Part shown: one piece after another, positions 484-11,239 of the stretch
Numbering within the stretch: the stretch's first letter is position 1
Layout: the number at the start of each line of letters is the position of its first letter
Virus record (IMG/VR): IMGVR_UViG_2740892236_000005
Length of the DNA stretch: 11,239 nucleotides
DNA from: a virus
Lineage: Duplodnaviria; Heunggongvirae; Uroviricota; Caudoviricetes
Strand: one strand, 5' to 3'
Made by a program: the position numbers and the translations under genes
The notes under the pieces: generated by a model
The model's input: the letters and a program-made list of their open reading frames with translations, nothing else
What the model was told of the DNA's origin: nothing
The model's database searches: none

Positions 484-677
484 ACCTGCACTCCAATTAT
501 TGACCAGTTCCTCACCGCGCCTCCCTCTCCGGCGGCGCGAATGAACATCTTATTGGCTATCACATCCGACACAAATGTTGCCATCCCATTGCTTAATCGA
601 ATAAAAATCAGGCTACATGGGTGCTAAATCTTTAACGATAACGCCATTGAGGCTGGTCATGGCGCTCATAAATCTGG

Positions 678-683
678 TATACT
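678..683 (+). promoter_or_regulatory. Candidate -10 hexamer (TATACT) of the ssrA promoter
   Basis: TATACT sits about 15 nt upstream of the mature tmRNA 5' end at 698, consistent with a short precursor leader. No convincing -35 was found by eye. Confidence 0.4.
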
Positions 684-697
684 TACCTTTACACATT

Positions 698-1060
698 GGG
701 GCTGATTCTGGATTCGACGGGATTTGCGAAACCCAAGGTGCATGCCGAGGGGCGGTTGGCCTCGTAAAAAGCCGCAAAAAATAGTCGCAAACGACGAAAA
801 CTACGCTTTAGCAGCTTAATAACCTGCTTAGAGCCCTCTCTCCCTAGCCTCCGCTCTTAGGACGGGGATCAAGAGAGGTCAAACCCAAAAGAGATCGCGT
901 GGAAGCCCTGCCTGGGGTTGAAGCGTTAAAACTTAATCAGGCTAGTTTGTTAGTGGCGTGTCCGTCCGCAGCTGGCAAGCGAATGTAAAGACTGACTAAG
1001 CATGTAGTACCGAGGATGTAGGAATTTCGGACGCGGGTTCAACTCCCGCCAGCTCCACCA
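698..1060 (+). ncRNA. ssrA: tmRNA (transfer-messenger RNA, SsrA), 363 nt
   Basis: 5' end GGGGCTGATTCTGGATTCGACGGG at 698, internal tag reading frame, and 3' tRNA-like end GGTTCAACTCCCGCCAGCTCCACCA finishing at 1060. Matches the enterobacterial tmRNA sequence from memory. Confidence 0.95.
787..819 (+). other. tmRNA tag-peptide reading frame (ANDENYALAA plus stop)
   Basis: GCAAACGACGAAAACTACGCTTTAGCAGCTTAA translates to ANDENYALAA followed by a stop, the canonical proteolysis tag encoded within tmRNA. Confidence 0.9.
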
Positions 1061-1070
1061 AATAAATCAA

Positions 1071-1100
1071 GGGGTTACGTGAAAGCGTAGCCCCTTTTTC
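1071..1100 (+). terminator. Rho-independent terminator downstream of ssrA
   Basis: Hairpin GGGGTTACG (1071-1079) / CGTAGCCCC (1086-1094), 9-bp stem with one G-T wobble, followed by TTTTTCTTT. Confidence 0.6.
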
Positions 1101-1118
1101 TTTAGTAGTGGCGGCAAA

Positions 1119-1157: not shown

Positions 1158-1183
1158 CTTGAAATCATGCAAAGAGGTTTCAC

Positions 1184-1666
1184 ATGGAAGAACTTCACTT
1201 TGTTTACATCAATGCAAATGGTCGTATCGGTGTTCACTCTATACAGAGCATCAGTTATAGCGAAAATCATATACAGGGCATTTGTAAGAACACCGATCGA
1301 ATAAAAACCTTCCGAAAAGACCGCATTCTTAAACAGTACGATTCACCAGAACAAGCCATTCAGGAGTGCGCGTCATTCCTCCCCGAAAACTACTCACATC
1401 TCACCAAGCAGTCTGGTCCGAAAAAAAATACATTCGATGTGTGTTTCACCGGATTTAAGAAAGCAGATAAAGAAAGATTGGTTGATAAGGCGAATGAACA
1501 AGGATTAACGGTAAGAACCTCTGTAACCCAAAGCCTTCAGATGCTCTGTTGCGGTTACAATGCAGGCCCATCAAAAGTATCGGCAGCCAGGATGAAAGGC
1601 ACAATCATCATAGATGAGCCTGGCTTTATACATTTTCTTGAAACGGGTGAGATCCCAGATGAATAA
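1184..1666 (+). CDS. Prophage accessory (moron) protein: N-terminal WYL-like domain fused to C-terminal BRCT-like domain; function unknown
   Basis: 160-aa ORF with Shine-Dalgarno AAAGAGG at 1171-1177, 6 nt before the ATG. The N-terminal half (VYINANGRIGVHSIQSISYSENHIQGICKNTDRIKTFRKDRI) follows the WYL-domain pattern, with HIQ in the WYL position and the hallmark R-x-F-R-x-D-R-I motif. The C-terminal half (VCFTGFKKADKERLVDKANEQGLTVRTSVTQSLQMLCCGYNAGPSKVSAARMKGTIIIDEPGFIHFL) aligns by eye with the LigA-type BRCT domain. The gene is on the opposite strand to the phage late genes, looks AT-richer than its flanks, and has terminators on both sides. Confidence 0.75.
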   Translation: MEELHFVYINANGRIGVHSIQSISYSENHIQGICKNTDRIKTFRKDRILKQYDSPEQAIQECASFLPENYSHLTKQSGPKKNTFDVCFTGFKKADKERLVDKANEQGLTVRTSVTQSLQMLCCGYNAGPSKVSAARMKGTIIIDEPGFIHFLETGEIPDE

Positions 1667-1692: not shown

Positions 1693-1911
1693 TCAAAAAT
1701 TCATATGCCCCTGACCACCTGGCAATGGATGTGGAGGAGCAGTAGCAATCAGTGCGGGTGTCACAATAAACCGGACCACTGTTTCATGGGTAACAAAAGT
1801 ACTCCCGCAGTTAATATTTTGGCACTGGCAGTAACGCTCTTTGGTGCTTTCAGTTACTTGAAAACTGCTCCTTGTGTGTGCCGCATGACCACACTTTGGA
1901 CAATTCATCAT
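1693..1911 (-). CDS. ogr: Ogr-type zinc-finger late-gene transcription activator
   Basis: Within ORF 1693..1956, translation from the internal ATG at 1911 gives a 72-aa protein MMNCPKCGHAAHTRSSFQVTESTKERYCQCQNINCGSTF... with the C-x2-C ... C-x4-C zinc-finger spacing typical of P2 Ogr / 186 B / P4 Delta. It sits directly downstream of D as in P2. The track's upstream extension begins at a GTG and is probably not translated. Confidence 0.88.
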   Translation of the reverse strand: MMNCPKCGHAAHTRSSFQVTESTKERYCQCQNINCGSTFVTHETVVRFIVTPALIATAPPHPLPGGQGHMNF

Positions 1912-1979: not shown

Positions 1980-3080
1980 TTATTCCATTTCAAGATCATC
2001 AATCTTCACTTCGAGTTCAATACTGGTTGTAAAACCGTTATCTGGGCTGACGGTATGTGTCAGAGTCGTAATGGTCCATTCCGCATCATCTATCGGCTGT
2101 TTAAAACCACTGACCTTCACAGGCATTTCCGTGTAGAGATCTGCCCGCCCTTCCGCCAGTTGTAGCGAGAATGACGCAACGCCACGTTGCAGGCGTTCCC
2201 ACTGCATTTTCGCTGCCCGTTCAGCGTTGCTCCGGTTGGCATAAGTGCGATTAAGTACCAGCACGTTTTCATCCGTCCCCACCAGGTAATCGCCCTGCTT
2301 CGCTTCCGGCTCTTTCTTCTGCTTCTTAGTCCTGCGCTTACGCTTCACCGTAGTGCTTTCTTTCTTCGCGGGTTCGCGGGTATGCAACCAGCTGGCAATT
2401 ACCCCCGTGTAAGCTCCGCGATCTGCCAGGGTAAAGCGGTGACTGTCGCCGTCCTTACGTGCGATAGTAATCACCGGCAGTGGTTTACCGCTGGCGCTTT
2501 TGCCCTGTCCCTGCCGGATGAATAACAGATTGCCATTTTTCACCGATGCAATGGCACCGTACTGGCGCGCCAGCCGCATCAAAAAACTGCCGTCACTCTC
2601 ATTAGTCTGGTCTATATGCTCCACGGGCTTATCCGACAGGTCTTTACCCAGTGCCATCTTCAGCTTGTGCCGCGCGGCTATTTCCTTCACCACTTCCCCG
2701 ATGGTGGTGTTATGCCACGATTTTTCACGGCGGGTATTCAGCGTTTCCCGAAAATCAGCACTTCGCGCCCGGATAGTCAGGCGGTCCGGTGCGCCAGTGT
2801 GTTCAATCTCGTCCACCGTGAATGCCCCTTTCGGGAAAAGCGGCTGCCCCTTCCAGCCCAGCGCCAGCGTAATGACCGCACCACGGCGCGGCAGCACGAT
2901 TTTTCCGTCGGCGTCGTCCAGCTCCAGATCAAGCTGGTCCGCTTCAAAGCCCCGGTTATCCGTCAGCGTAAGCCCCATCAGGCGTTTGTCCAGCACAGTG
3001 GTGATATCCTTCCCCTCAATACTGATGCTGAATGCGGGAGTTTTGTTGCCTTTGTTAAGCAGTTCAGAGCTGAAATTCAC
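1980..3080 (-). CDS. D: P2 gpD-like tail protein (late control gene D family)
   Basis: 366-aa ORF in the position and size expected for P2 gpD, last gene of the tail operon before ogr. Its ATG overlaps the U stop (ATGA), indicating translational coupling. Confidence 0.85.
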   Translation of the reverse strand: MNFSSELLNKGNKTPAFSISIEGKDITTVLDKRLMGLTLTDNRGFEADQLDLELDDADGKIVLPRRGAVITLALGWKGQPLFPKGAFTVDEIEHTGAPDRLTIRARSADFRETLNTRREKSWHNTTIGEVVKEIAARHKLKMALGKDLSDKPVEHIDQTNESDGSFLMRLARQYGAIASVKNGNLLFIRQGQGKSASGKPLPVITIARKDGDSHRFTLADRGAYTGVIASWLHTREPAKKESTTVKRKRRTKKQKKEPEAKQGDYLVGTDENVLVLNRTYANRSNAERAAKMQWERLQRGVASFSLQLAEGRADLYTEMPVKVSGFKQPIDDAEWTITTLTHTVSPDNGFTTSIELEVKIDDLEME

Positions 3081-8959: not shown

Positions 8960-9526
8960 TCAGGGGGATTCATTGATCTTATTTGCCGGAAATTTTCTAT
9001 AAATGGTAGAAACGCCTACATCAAAAATCAGTGCAATACGCTGTCTTGATTCTCCGGCCTCGAGTAAACGCCCAATCTGTGCCCACTGTTCGGTGGTCAA
9101 CTTAGGACGGCGTCCACCTACTCTGCCTTTGGCACGAGCTGCAGCCAGCCCTGCCCTGGTACGTTCAACTATCAGTTCGCGTTCCATTTCAGCCAGGGCA
9201 CCCATGACATGAAAAAAGAAACGGCCCATTGGGGTACTGGTATCAATACTGTCAGTCAGGCTTCTGAAATTCACACCACGCTGGCGCAACTCTTCTATCA
9301 GCGTAACAAGATGTCGCATACTGCGCCCCAACCTGTCCAGCTTCCAGACAACCAGCGTGTCTCCTGCCGATAGTGTCCTGAGTAGTTTTTTCAGCCCCGG
9401 TCTGTCGGACTTAGTGCCACTGATTTTGTCCTCAAAAATCCGCTCACATCCCGCGCAGTTCAGTGCATTACGTTGCAAATCGGTGTTCTGGTCATTTGTT
9501 GACACGCGTACATAGCCAATAAGCAT
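8960..9526 (-). CDS. Serine DNA invertase, Gin/Pin/Cin/Hin family
   Basis: Translation MLIGYVRVSTNDQNTDLQRNALNCAGCERIFEDKISG...LVVWKLDRLGRSM...GRRPKL...STIYRKF has the invertase N-terminal catalytic motif (YVRVST, active-site Ser) and a C-terminal HTH, and is very close to Pin/Gin-type invertases as I remember them. The Shine-Dalgarno AGGGGG is positioned for the second ATG (9526), giving 188 aa; the ORF track starts two codons earlier at 9532. Confidence 0.9.
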   Translation of the reverse strand: MLIGYVRVSTNDQNTDLQRNALNCAGCERIFEDKISGTKSDRPGLKKLLRTLSAGDTLVVWKLDRLGRSMRHLVTLIEELRQRGVNFRSLTDSIDTSTPMGRFFFHVMGALAEMERELIVERTRAGLAAARAKGRVGGRRPKLTTEQWAQIGRLLEAGESRQRIALIFDVGVSTIYRKFPANKINESP

Positions 9527-9581
9527 GATCATCCCCCTGAATAAAAACCGGAGATGATGCCAGTTAGCTGTTACCTCTGCA

Positions 9582-9607
9582 TTTTCTTAAACGTTGGTTT
9601 GGGAGAA
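9582..9607. other. Left recombination (crossover) site of the invertible segment, gix/hix/cix-like
   Basis: TTTTCTTAAACG-TT-GGTTTGGGAGAA is an imperfect 12-2-12 palindrome. Its right half matches the gix right half GGTTTTGGATAA (recalled from memory) at 10 of 12 positions. The inner 13 bp GGTTTGGGAGAAG (9596-9608) recur as an exact inverted copy at 11227-11239. Confidence 0.65.
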
Positions 9608-9949
9608 GCGGCAAAAAGGGATGTTGGGATTGGGGCAAATCAGATCCCTGATATGAGCAAATGGACATCGCTGAAAGCAGATTACGGGTGGCGGTTGACT
9701 CCAGATGGATTTCTGGAGCAATGGGGGCGCGGTAATTATGGAAACGGCGATGGAGATTTTGTCATCCCATTCCCGAACCGTTGTGCGTTCGTTTTAATTA
9801 GCTCGGATCCGAATGACACGTCATATGCCGAGATTTCACAGGCATTCCCTGTCAGCAACTCAAAATTCAGGGTTGGCTGCGCAACGGCAGAGGGTAATAA
9901 CGTTAATCCGGCAAATTTGACATGTAACTGGTATGCGAAGGGATGGTGA
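9594..9949 (+). CDS. Silent alternative tail-fibre C-terminal cassette (Hv'), promoterless in this orientation
   Basis: The frame is open through the crossover site (ggt ttg gga gaa = GLGE) and continues AAKRDVGIGANQIPDMSKW...NWYAKGW to a TGA at 9947-9949. It is in the same codon phase relative to the 13-bp repeat as the expressed fibre on the other side, so inversion would fuse it in frame to the constant fibre N-terminus. The track's ATG at 9554 is probably not a real start. Confidence 0.6.
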
Positions 9950-9951
9950 TA

Positions 9952-10155
9952 ATGAATATTTACTTTTATAGCGCGTCAACGAATCAATTTTACCCGACAG
10001 TGTTACTCGACGCATACCGTGGAAATGGCGTTTTGCCTGATGATATTAAGCCCGTCGATGACGATATGGCTCTGAAGTTTTTAGGGGCTCCTCCGGAGGG
10101 AATGAAACGAGCGGCGGGTAGCAATGGGCTACCCACGTGGGTAATGGTAAGCTAG
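9952..10155 (+). CDS. Short (about 67-70 aa) tail-fibre assembly protein N-terminal domain (Tfa'), possibly a truncated remnant
   Basis: MNIYFYSASTNQFYPTVLLDAYRGNGVLPDDIKPVDDDMALKFLGAPPEGMKRAAGSNGLPTWV matches the conserved N-terminus of one tail-fibre assembly family, but the frame stops at TAG 10153-10155 without the usual C-terminal half. An alternative ATG lies at 9943. Confidence 0.55.
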   Translation: MNIYFYSASTNQFYPTVLLDAYRGNGVLPDDIKPVDDDMALKFLGAPPEGMKRAAGSNGLPTWVMVS

Positions 10156-10769
10156 ACGTACAGTTCAGGCCAACTGATATCCGGTGCGGTGCTGGTATCA
10201 GTTGCCGTCACCGCGTCAATGTAATCCAGCACGACGTTAAGCCGGGTGGTTTCTGTCTGCGTCAGTTTTCGCCCGGCCTGCAATTTCAACTGAATCAGAT
10301 TAATGGAAGCCATTGCAGTATCAATCAGCGACTGGCGTTGTGTTTTTGCCGCTTCTACAGCGGCACGATGTTGCGCATCTGTATCGGTCACCCATTTCTC
10401 ACCATCCCATTCATCGTATGGCGTTAACGGTGCGACAGTGGTTGTGTTTTCAGGGTAATCACCCGGAGTGGTGATTTCTGCTGCCTCACGGGTTTCTGTG
10501 TTATAGACTGTCTCACCCCGATGGTCCGGCACGTACTCCCACGTGGTCAGGTCAGCAGTGCGGCAAATCACATAACCAGACCGCCTTTCCCCGGGGGCAT
10601 CAGTGCATGAATGTGCAGGAAGGCCAACGCCTACAGCCAGATATTCGGTTGACGTGTAAAGGTATTCCCGCGTCTTATTATCGTAGCTGTGGACAACAAC
10701 CTCTCCTGCAACTGTTGCCAGCCGCGATTCATTCAGCACCGCTGTAGTCATGGTTTTCTTGCTCATCAT
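10152..10769 (-). CDS. Tail-fibre assembly protein (Tfa, lambda-Tfa-like; positional equivalent of P2 G), expressed orientation
   Basis: 205-aa ORF whose C-terminus (...RLNVVLDYIDAVTATDTSTAPDISWPELYV) matches the conserved Tfa C-terminal motif (VDTSTAPDIEWP in lambda Tfa). Its start overlaps the fibre gene stop (ATGA). Confidence 0.85.
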   Translation of the reverse strand: MMSKKTMTTAVLNESRLATVAGEVVVHSYDNKTREYLYTSTEYLAVGVGLPAHSCTDAPGERRSGYVICRTADLTTWEYVPDHRGETVYNTETREAAEITTPGDYPENTTTVAPLTPYDEWDGEKWVTDTDAQHRAAVEAAKTQRQSLIDTAMASINLIQLKLQAGRKLTQTETTRLNVVLDYIDAVTATDTSTAPDISWPELYV

Positions 10770-11239
10770 GCAGCCCTTACGATGTAGTTAAATGCAATGT
10801 TACGTGGCCTTGCATAACCCAGATACTGAATCCCCCAGGCTCCCACTGGAACGGGGTTCCAGATATGTTCTGTAGGTATACTTTTCGCTCTGAGAATATC
10901 TGAATTGGTTTCAGTTTTATCCCATCCCAGCAGGGCAATGTCGTTTACCGAAAACTGCACCACGCTGTCGGGTGATATATTGGCTTCCTGAACCAGATAA
11001 GAGCCTTTTTGCCACGACAACAACGTCCGGCTACTGTCCACTCCGCGCCCGTCATCCCAGCCACGAATAAATTCACCACGTAAATCAGGCAATATATTTG
11101 TCGGATAAGCCTTTGCCAGTTCCGGGTATTCTTCAGCAGAAAATGCCGCCCCGTTGCATTTCACCCAGCCTGTTGGCGGTGTGGCTGAAGGCCACGGAAC
11201 AGGTACACCAACGGGTAATGCAGAGCCTTCTCCCAAACC
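10766..11239 (-). CDS. Tail fibre protein, variable C-terminal receptor-binding part (expressed orientation); 5' part of the gene lies beyond the window
   Basis: The frame runs to the window edge (GLGEGSALPVGVPVPWPSATPPTGWVKCNGAAFSAEEYPELAKAYP...NYIVRAA), with the PWP...GW..C.G...YP motif seen in many tail-fibre C-terminal domains (P2 H, Mu S). The track's start at 11236 is a window-edge artefact. Confidence 0.8.
   Translation of the reverse strand, partial: GLGEGSALPVGVPVPWPSATPPTGWVKCNGAAFSAEEYPELAKAYPTNILPDLRGEFIRGWDDGRGVDSSRTLLSWQKGSYLVQEANISPDSVVQFSVNDIALLGWDKTETNSDILRAKSIPTEHIWNPVPVGAWGIQYLGYARPRNIAFNYIVRAA
11227..11239. other. Right recombination (crossover) site of the invertible segment, inner half only (truncated by window end)
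   Basis: Plus-strand CTTCTCCCAAACC at 11227-11239 is the exact reverse complement of GGTTTGGGAGAAG at 9596-9608. The core and outer half must lie just past position 11239. Confidence 0.6.

Follow-up and report, generated by a model that had tools for sequence, protein, structure and literature searches.

The WYL-BRCT gene and its locus

The stretch of DNA analysed here, which we call the window, comprises the 11,239 nucleotides (nt) of IMG/VR record IMGVR_UViG_2740892236_000005, a Caudoviricetes sequence. At 1184-1666 on its plus strand lies a gene for a small protein that joins a WYL-like to a BRCT-like domain, and that we refer to as WYL-BRCT. Its open reading frame (ORF) runs from an ATG at 1184 to a TAA at 1664-1666 and encodes 160 amino acids (aa) plus the stop; as a preliminary description of this DNA had reported, it has its own Shine-Dalgarno sequence, AGAGG at 1173-1177 (+), 6 nt ahead of the ATG. 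This start context is kept in relatives, where AGGTG or AGAGG is followed by ATGGAAGAA. With the protein as query, a word-indexed search returned 122 homologues at E<=1e-3, and an exhaustive search returned 2656 cluster representatives, 215 of them at E<=1e-30. The ratio of nonsynonymous to synonymous divergence (dN/dS) is 0.10 against a 97%-identical relative, and against relatives of 55-74% identity dN is only 0.2-0.35 with dS saturated. The ORF is a genuine gene under strong purifying selection, and its locus is found in 170-171 of 5426 complete E. coli genomes.

The gene sits just inside a prophage boundary. The first kilobase of the window is host DNA holding smpB (1-483) and the transfer-messenger RNA (tmRNA) gene ssrA (698-1060, +; called by ARAGORN and by Rfam RF00023 at 295.8 bits), and an Rfam scan of 1-2500 found nothing beyond the tmRNA. 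The 3' end of ssrA is the attachment site. A 46-bp att core at 1016-1061, the attL copy, marks the left boundary and is identical at 46/46 positions to the attR copy of a complete prophage in E. coli NZ_CP104112 (locus L005, 34451-34496). Phage DNA begins at about 1062, and WYL-BRCT is the first phage gene after attL, 122 nt inside the boundary. It is convergent with an ogr/Delta-type zinc-finger late activator gene (1693-1911, minus strand; PHROG 603 at 7.9e-29, and so annotated by RefSeq on identical DNA). The conserved backbone of the phage starts with this gene, and a gpD-like gene (1980-3080, minus strand) comes next. The complete prophage in NZ_CP104112 is a 33-kb, 186-like member of the Peduoviridae, 99% identical to phage 500465-1, with genes for CI, an Apl-like protein, CII, Fil, replication protein A, a DinI/Tum-type protein, P2-type head and tail proteins, and ogr.

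Domain architecture and conserved pockets

AlphaFold2, run on the full length with 43 family members, gave a model with a mean-confidence score (pLDDT) of 91.6. Residues 1-73 (1184-1402, +) form a five-stranded Sm/SH3-type beta-barrel (strands 3-9, 15-25, 29-34, 40-44 and 48-52) with two helices, like solved WYL domains. A linker of lower pLDDT (residues 74-84, 1403-1435, +), whose length differs among relatives, leads to an alpha/beta BRCT fold of the LigA/RFC1/PARP1 single-BRCT class (residues 85-154, 1436-1645, +). The top structure matches of the barrel are PafBC (6.8), CapW bound to single-stranded DNA (ssDNA; 6.5), BrxR (6.3 and 6.2) and ssDNA-bound DriD (5.9), with generic Sm/Hfq barrels ranking below the WYL proteins. 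Sequence profiles are less generous to the N-terminal half: Pfam WYL (PF13280) does not match the window protein even at E<=10, and matches 3/31 close relatives (best 1.5e-5) and 24/60 longer ones (best 1.2e-8). A profile of the N-domain found only two matches in the PDB. Both are WYL domains that align on the F-R-x-D-R-I strand, and both matches are weak (E 0.26 and 1.5). Because Pfam is blank for the N-terminal half, the WYL assignment is taken from the relatives and from structure; the C-terminal half has a borderline Pfam BRCT match (21.4 bits against a cutoff of 21.3). In the model, then, the protein is an N-terminal WYL-type barrel joined by a linker to a C-terminal LigA/RFC1-class BRCT domain. 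The protein closes with a conserved tail, G-E-I-P-D-E (residues 155-160, 1646-1663, +; seen in column counts and alignments), which belongs to an L-E-T-G-E-[IVL]-P motif following the BRCT domain and may be a docking peptide. Mimicry of a beta-clamp-binding or single-strand-binding-protein (SSB) tail was considered and dropped, as the ETGEIP tail has neither QL[SD]LF nor a terminal IPF.

The preliminary description had anticipated both domains and the LigA-like class of the second. It had also seen no catalytic domain and knew of no characterised phage protein with the two domains, and both points are supported: Pfam, NCBIfam and PADLOC give no catalytic domain in WYL-BRCT or in 60 longer relatives, PDB, PADLOC, NCBIfam and the literature searched yielded no characterised member of the family, and sequence searches of PADLOC, NCBIfam and PDB returned neither a full-length family nor a solved two-domain homologue. 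A WYL and BRCT fusion is already among the WYL architectures of a 2014 survey (PMC4012209). The residues it had read as the WYL position, HIQ, do fall on the WYL-equivalent triplet with an offset of one: a hidden Markov model alignment to PafBC places the triplet at N28-H29-I30. The R-x-F-R-x-D-R-I motif is likewise present, except that its first residue is K41, so that the window protein reads K41-T-F-R-K-D-R-I48.

Databases already list the family, though under misleading names and as yet uncharacterised. PHROG 2561 is labelled 'DNA ligase', GenBank uses 'DNA ligase' and 'putative exonuclease' (phage Cartapus), NCBIfam models of LigA and of a DEDDh exonuclease match weakly, and neighbours in BFVD are called 'putative DNA ligase'; the BFVD fold search returned only BRCT-in-ligase matches and one protein of the same size with that name, from Vibrio phage SSP002. 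That these labels are right, and WYL-BRCT is a ligase, a ligase subunit, an exonuclease or a fragment of one, has a probability close to nil in our estimate. The NCBIfam matches reach 19.6 bits against a cutoff of 444 for LigA and 26.1 against 389 for DEDDh and involve the BRCT part only, and neither Pfam nor the fold contains a nucleotidyltransferase, OB, HhH or DEDD domain. Nor is the gene a piece of something larger, the outcome that the preliminary description had named as fatal to its proposal: in hundreds of clusters the family consists of complete proteins of about 160 aa. We regard the enzyme names as over-annotation from the BRCT domain, refuted at the level of domain content; whatever the function proves to be, they are wrong and propagating.

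WYL-BRCT also differs from the closest known BRCT proteins. In LigA, RFC1 and PARP1 the BRCT domain is attached to a ligase, clamp-loader or PARP core, and WYL-BRCT has no such core. The basic N-terminal helix that boosts DNA binding in RFC1 is replaced here by the WYL domain and linker, and the BRCT domain carries no net positive charge, unlike the single BRCT domains of all three proteins. Subunit B of the T5-like split NAD+ ligase (PDB 9hu3_B; PHROG 3498) works with a catalytic subunit A and other ligase modules, whereas the prophage has no ligase partner gene and the N-domain of WYL-BRCT is a WYL barrel.

The phosphate pocket of the BRCT domain is intact. In yeast Rfc1, residues T166, G167, R174 and K209 hold the 5' phosphate of DNA (PMC9359705). 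These align to T89, G90, K96 and K131 of WYL-BRCT, and across 43 aligned members T89, G90 and K131 are each kept in 43/43 and K96 in 41/43, the other two having arginine. DNA binding itself is a prediction from these alignments. In the WYL-like domain, which is less canonical, Y8 and T42 are invariant and F43, R44, D46 and R47 nearly so. The W of the triplet is absent and its middle position is Y or H throughout the family; the N-H-I of the window protein (consensus x-Y/H-I) sets it apart from the known WYL sensors.

About 60 of the best 150 cluster representatives are longer than 225 aa. Among 44 relatives with an N-terminal extension, 38 have one to five hydrophobic 19-mers by a simple hydropathy scan, a crude window that may include some mis-called starts. 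Membrane-anchored examples are L162 (5004-5696), P0107, P0114, P0115, P0136, P0199 and P0219; the L162 variant, in a P2-like phage, lies directly after a CI-like repressor gene and before gpD. Other longer relatives have extra BRCT domains, a second WYL-BRCT unit, or an unannotated domain of about 200 aa without a Pfam match. In the soluble proteins P0123, P0124, P0131, P0159, P0180, P0184 and P0185 the last is joined to one or the other end of the WYL-BRCT module, with the motifs GW.FAV, WTQG..F.F..GD.F, LQV and a closing F..LL.TG, and occurs in a shorter form in P0202, P0230, P0245 and P0253.

The ligand of the WYL barrel is harder to predict. PafBC, DriD, CapW and BrxR are regulators in which the WYL domain stands between a winged helix-turn-helix (wHTH) and a WCX domain; WYL-BRCT has neither, its barrel being fused to a BRCT domain, and so is not a transcription factor. 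In CapW two arginines that contact ssDNA flank the WYL triplet (PMC11662680), and we compared the contact set S144, R164, R168 and R184 around its W-Y/H-L/V triplet, with equivalences drawn from sequence alignment and not from structural superposition. The two flanking arginines, two of the four ssDNA contacts, are E27 and Q31 in WYL-BRCT, and in the columns for 43 members these positions are E or D in 35/43 and Q in 28/43. The sole contact arginine kept is R47 of F-R-K-D-R-I (36/43), and the CapW-type contact set as a whole is not conserved in the N-domain.

This bears on one possible role, that of an anti-defence factor or ligand sponge. Such a protein would soak up the signal, ssDNA or a nucleotide, by which WYL-controlled host immunity (CapW-CBASS or BrxR-BREX) is released from repression, or would mask DNA ends from host nucleases. 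The barrel has the WYL fold of CapW and BrxR, and the lack of an effector domain is what a decoy would show. The loss of the CapW arginines counts against such a sponge, however, as do a position on the lysogeny side and not among early lytic genes and the membrane-tethered variants, which are hard to account for on these terms, and we consider the role very unlikely.

Genomic context, transcription and candidate roles

The arrangement at the left end is strongly conserved. The IMG/VR loci compared, which span 55-100% protein identity, all (80/80) read host tmRNA or tRNA (+), WYL-BRCT (+), ogr (-), gpD (-), and they do so whether the attachment site is ssrA or tRNA-Met. Homologues recur at prophage att ends, a possibility that the preliminary description had proposed to check, and in other lineages they recur in repressor-integrase operons. 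In the 80 loci the divergence of WYL-BRCT, down to 55%, tracks that of Ogr and gpD, which argues that the gene is an old resident and not a recent insertion.

The preliminary description had called it a moron. The accessory status implied by that word is well founded, because sister E. coli prophages carry other cargo at the same spot between ssrA and ogr: in strain MS1665 a gene for a 358-aa ParA-family ATPase (L010, 3714-4790), and in strain C2, in the opposite orientation, genes for a 257-aa reverse transcriptase and a 57-aa ORF (L095, 970-1885), the former closest to retron type VI enzymes (PADLOC RT_VI, 6.6e-18). The picture of a recent, self-contained insertion is not supported, given the 80/80 conserved loci and the lack of a detectable promoter of its own. 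The AT-richness noted by eye is real (guanine plus cytosine makes up 41-44% across the gene, about 50% of smpB/ssrA and 54-60% of the tail genes), but ogr is likewise AT-rich. Two flanking terminators had also been described. A hairpin at 1668-1685, between WYL-BRCT and ogr, was found by the terminator scan and in the sequence, and is likely a bidirectional terminator with the better T-run on the ogr strand; the upstream terminator belongs to ssrA.

The interval between ssrA and ogr is thus a variable cargo spot, outside the classically described cargo loci of P2. The described spots of that phage are old/tin and Z/fun. To our knowledge WYL-BRCT is absent from P2 and 186, and the homologue search with WYL-BRCT had no match to either phage.

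Upstream of the gene there is little room for a promoter. The intrinsic terminator of ssrA, called by the terminator scan at 1069-1104 (+), is supplied by the phage; it has a 12-bp stem (hairpin 1069-1096) followed by a T-run, separates ssrA from WYL-BRCT, and has an equivalent hairpin after the tmRNA or tRNA gene in all lineages compared. Just past it, read from the sequence, are three 8-bp repeats (1109-1156): a direct pair with 11-bp spacing, TGGCGGCA at 1109-1116 and TGGCGACA at 1120-1127, and an inverted copy, TGTCGCCA at 1149-1156, about 50 nt downstream of the terminator. Relatives of both the ssrA type and the tRNA-Met type keep the direct pair, in which the bases co-vary; the tRNA-Met type has TGGCAGCA x2 and TGGCGAT x2. 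The repeats are probably arm-type sites for integrase (Int) in the P' arm of attP, and between them they take up most of the upstream region. No sigma-70-like promoter was found at the scan threshold in the 87 nt from the terminator to the ATG (1097-1183), and by manual inspection hexamers upstream of the ATG match at 3/6 positions at best. Since no promoter was detected and the repeats fill the upstream space, transcription of WYL-BRCT may depend on read-through, which would come from ssrA in the lysogen and from CI-int-orf343 in the excised circle. An Ogr-dependent late promoter was also considered and dropped, TGT-N12-ACA being absent upstream.

The same position raises the possibility that WYL-BRCT helps with the phage's own DNA transactions, binding cos ends or attP and recombination intermediates during circularisation, integration or excision. 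In 80/80 enterobacterial loci the gene abuts attP and the putative Int arm sites, it is co-oriented with int everywhere, and a binder of 5' phosphates and single strands would suit P2-type cohesive ends, which are 19 nt long. Yet the gene is dispensable, since sister prophages that appear otherwise intact carry other cargo instead, and P2 and 186 lack it. Moreover, the WYL-BRCT genes of other lineages are not beside attP, and a protein produced after entry cannot shield ends at entry. We give this role a low probability.

In those other lineages the gene's neighbour is the immunity repressor. WYL-BRCT stands between CI and int in Xenorhabdus, with gaps of 34 nt and 2 nt, and in Pectobacterium, where two further ORFs precede int; it follows CI in Yersinia ruckeri, in Mannheimia PHL101 (3-nt gap) and in Vibrio PV94. 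Serratia has a helix-turn-helix (HTH) gene, Flk_N, WYL-BRCT and int, a metagenomic phage has HTH, Flk_N, WYL-BRCT, YebY, int and DUF4062, and Burkholderia phages have an HTH repressor, orf249 and WYL-BRCT; Flk_N, YebY and DUF4062 represent other variable cargo of the repressor-int interval. Six more IMG/VR phages have a repressor directly before the gene; they are six of seven further loci that came, along with L162, from repeating the IMG/VR scan with membrane-anchored variants as seeds, which otherwise gave mostly enterobacterial loci again. In all, the repressor precedes WYL-BRCT, co-oriented with int, in at least 12 P2-like lineages. The window prophage, read as a circle, has CI, int, orf343, attP and WYL-BRCT in one orientation.

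In the 186-like prophage BTP5, repressor and integrase are transcribed under all conditions in lysogens (PMC7067206). Because its relatives sit in the repressor-integrase operon, WYL-BRCT is probably made in lysogens; for the E. coli lineage of the window we infer the same. WYL-BRCT is a long-standing accessory gene on the lysogeny side of P2/186/HP1-like temperate phages, co-oriented and perhaps co-transcribed with repressor and integrase, and it places a WYL sensor barrel with a LigA/RFC1-type BRCT domain in a prophage lysogeny module.

A gene so placed might modulate the response to DNA damage. The protein would sense damage-derived ssDNA or gap junctions with a 5' phosphate, the junction that RecFOR uses for RecA loading, and would act on the SOS signal or on the repressor to adjust how readily the prophage is induced or to make lysogeny more stable. 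Characterised WYL domains (PafBC, DriD and CapW) all sense ssDNA produced by damage, WYL-BRCT is almost always the first gene past the immunity repressor, and the DinI/Tum-type gene makes the prophage probably SOS-inducible. Against this, the protein has no HTH or repressor-like module, P2 and 186 do without it, and the membrane-anchored variants are a poor fit. The upstream repressors are also of at least three unrelated types (186 CI, a LexA-like CI of 228 aa, and short HTH_3/HTH_31 proteins), which argues against a specific partner and suggests generic cargo expressed in the lysogen and not dedicated to one repressor. We therefore think a role in induction unlikely. Were it true, it would give the P2/186 switch an SOS-independent damage input.

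We tentatively favour a different role, the exclusion of other phages by a non-enzymatic binder of 5'-phosphate or ssDNA structures that is expressed in the lysogen, while holding it to be somewhat short of an even chance. Precedent exists for genes of this kind: in lambda the rexAB genes share a transcript with cI and shut other phages out, and P2 has lysogen-expressed exclusion genes in old, tin and fun. Like these, WYL-BRCT lies downstream of and co-oriented with the repressor, is accessory and replaceable, and is AT-richer than the backbone; it has no sequence or fold relation to them, and the likeness is one of position, accessory status and AT content only. The protein would recognise a structure exposed by incoming or replicating foreign DNA, namely a 5'-phosphorylated end, a nick or a gap with single-stranded DNA beside it, such as cohesive ends before they are sealed. 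Stoichiometric occupancy would then block ligation, circularisation or replication, or would deliver the DNA to nucleases of the host. The module of many relatives would be tethered to the inner membrane, the site of phage DNA entry. Both the proposed ligand, DNA, and the proposed exclusion are inferred from the folds, the intact pocket, the place in the lysogeny operon, the defence-flavoured alternative cargo, the membrane-tethered relatives and the lack of an enzyme domain.

Several observations weigh against exclusion. BRCT phosphate pockets bind phosphopeptides and ADP-ribose as well as DNA, and the protein is near-neutral, with a median isoelectric point of 6.9 and a BRCT net charge of about -1, unlike a generic DNA coater. 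The surface of the N-domain is conserved, yet with the CapW flanking arginines replaced its ligand need not be ssDNA. No full-length match to the defence models of PADLOC-DB v2 was found; only the BRCT part (residues 83-153) matches the C-terminus of a candidate, PDC-S48, at 1.8e-7. To these may be added the lack of a detectable promoter upstream in this E. coli lineage, the crude basis of the membrane segments, and a place beside the repressor that would fit equally well if the protein acted in the lysogeny or induction decision of its own phage.

A more specific form of exclusion can be imagined, a new class of prophage immunity in which the product of one gene, non-enzymatic and soluble or membrane-tethered, caps DNA ends, nicks or gaps, so that in lysogens of P2-like phages the incoming DNA would be neither sealed nor replicated. 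For the enterobacterial gene, which lies across attP from the CI-int operon, an integration-dependent promoter swap would be added: integration would part WYL-BRCT from that operon and put it behind the strongly transcribed ssrA or tRNA-Met gene, and read-through of the phage-supplied terminator would drive it in the lysogen. This combination we regard as decidedly unlikely.

WYL is known as the sensing half of regulators and effector fusions, and the BRCT of LigA and RFC1 as a 5'-phosphate reader inside large enzymes; here the two are joined without an output domain, in hundreds of clusters of temperate-phage and related genes, at a location where phages hold genes that act in the lysogen. 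If exclusion or defence is the function, a purely stoichiometric, structure-recognising mechanism would be added to prophage-encoded immunity, and the protein, through T89/K131 and Y8/R44 mutants, would offer a simple handle on which DNA structure betrays an invader.

Neighbouring genes and annotation

Further cargo accompanies WYL-BRCT in some elements. The product of orf343, a 343-aa protein encoded between int and attR (L005, 33303-34334), is hydrophobic at its N-terminus and matches nothing in Pfam, PADLOC or NCBIfam; in Xenorhabdus a 283-aa counterpart (L008, 9504-10355) follows int. Here, too, the lysogeny operon carries a cargo gene that is uncharacterised. In L081, L083 and L085 (for example L085, 3030-3671) a 213-aa ORF6N-domain, antirepressor-like gene lies between WYL-BRCT and ogr. 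Reduced prophage remnants keep WYL-BRCT with ogr, apl, CI and int (L082, 1-4200, about 4.2 kb, and the deletion derivative L057), and could be decaying prophages or mini-elements. Outside the P2-like phages, a distant homologue in a Pseudothioglobus integrative island is convergent with a 338-aa Mrr-type (type IV restriction-like) gene (L006, 7366-8884), in an island that also carries an orphan DNA methylase, AlpA, a Rep protein and an integrase, a setting that is defence-island-like.

Elsewhere in the window, a 190-aa recombinase/invertase gene (8960-9532, minus strand) adjoins opposed tail-fibre and fibre-assembly ORFs (9554-11236). A quick scan of this segment gave weak inverted repeats only; the arrangement points to a host-range segment that can invert, as with Mu Gin and P1 Cin. 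A 55-aa ORF at 617-784 (+) overlaps the 5' part of the tmRNA together with DNA immediately before it and is listed as hypothetical protein HYO67_gp45 in the 500465-1 record; it is almost certainly a spurious call. The window starts exactly at the smpB ATG, as do dozens of IMG/VR prophage contigs (loci L011-L060), so this predicted viral contig runs about 1 kb into host DNA (smpB and ssrA). The record of phage 500465-1 similarly counts recN, bamE, ratA and smpB as phage genes.

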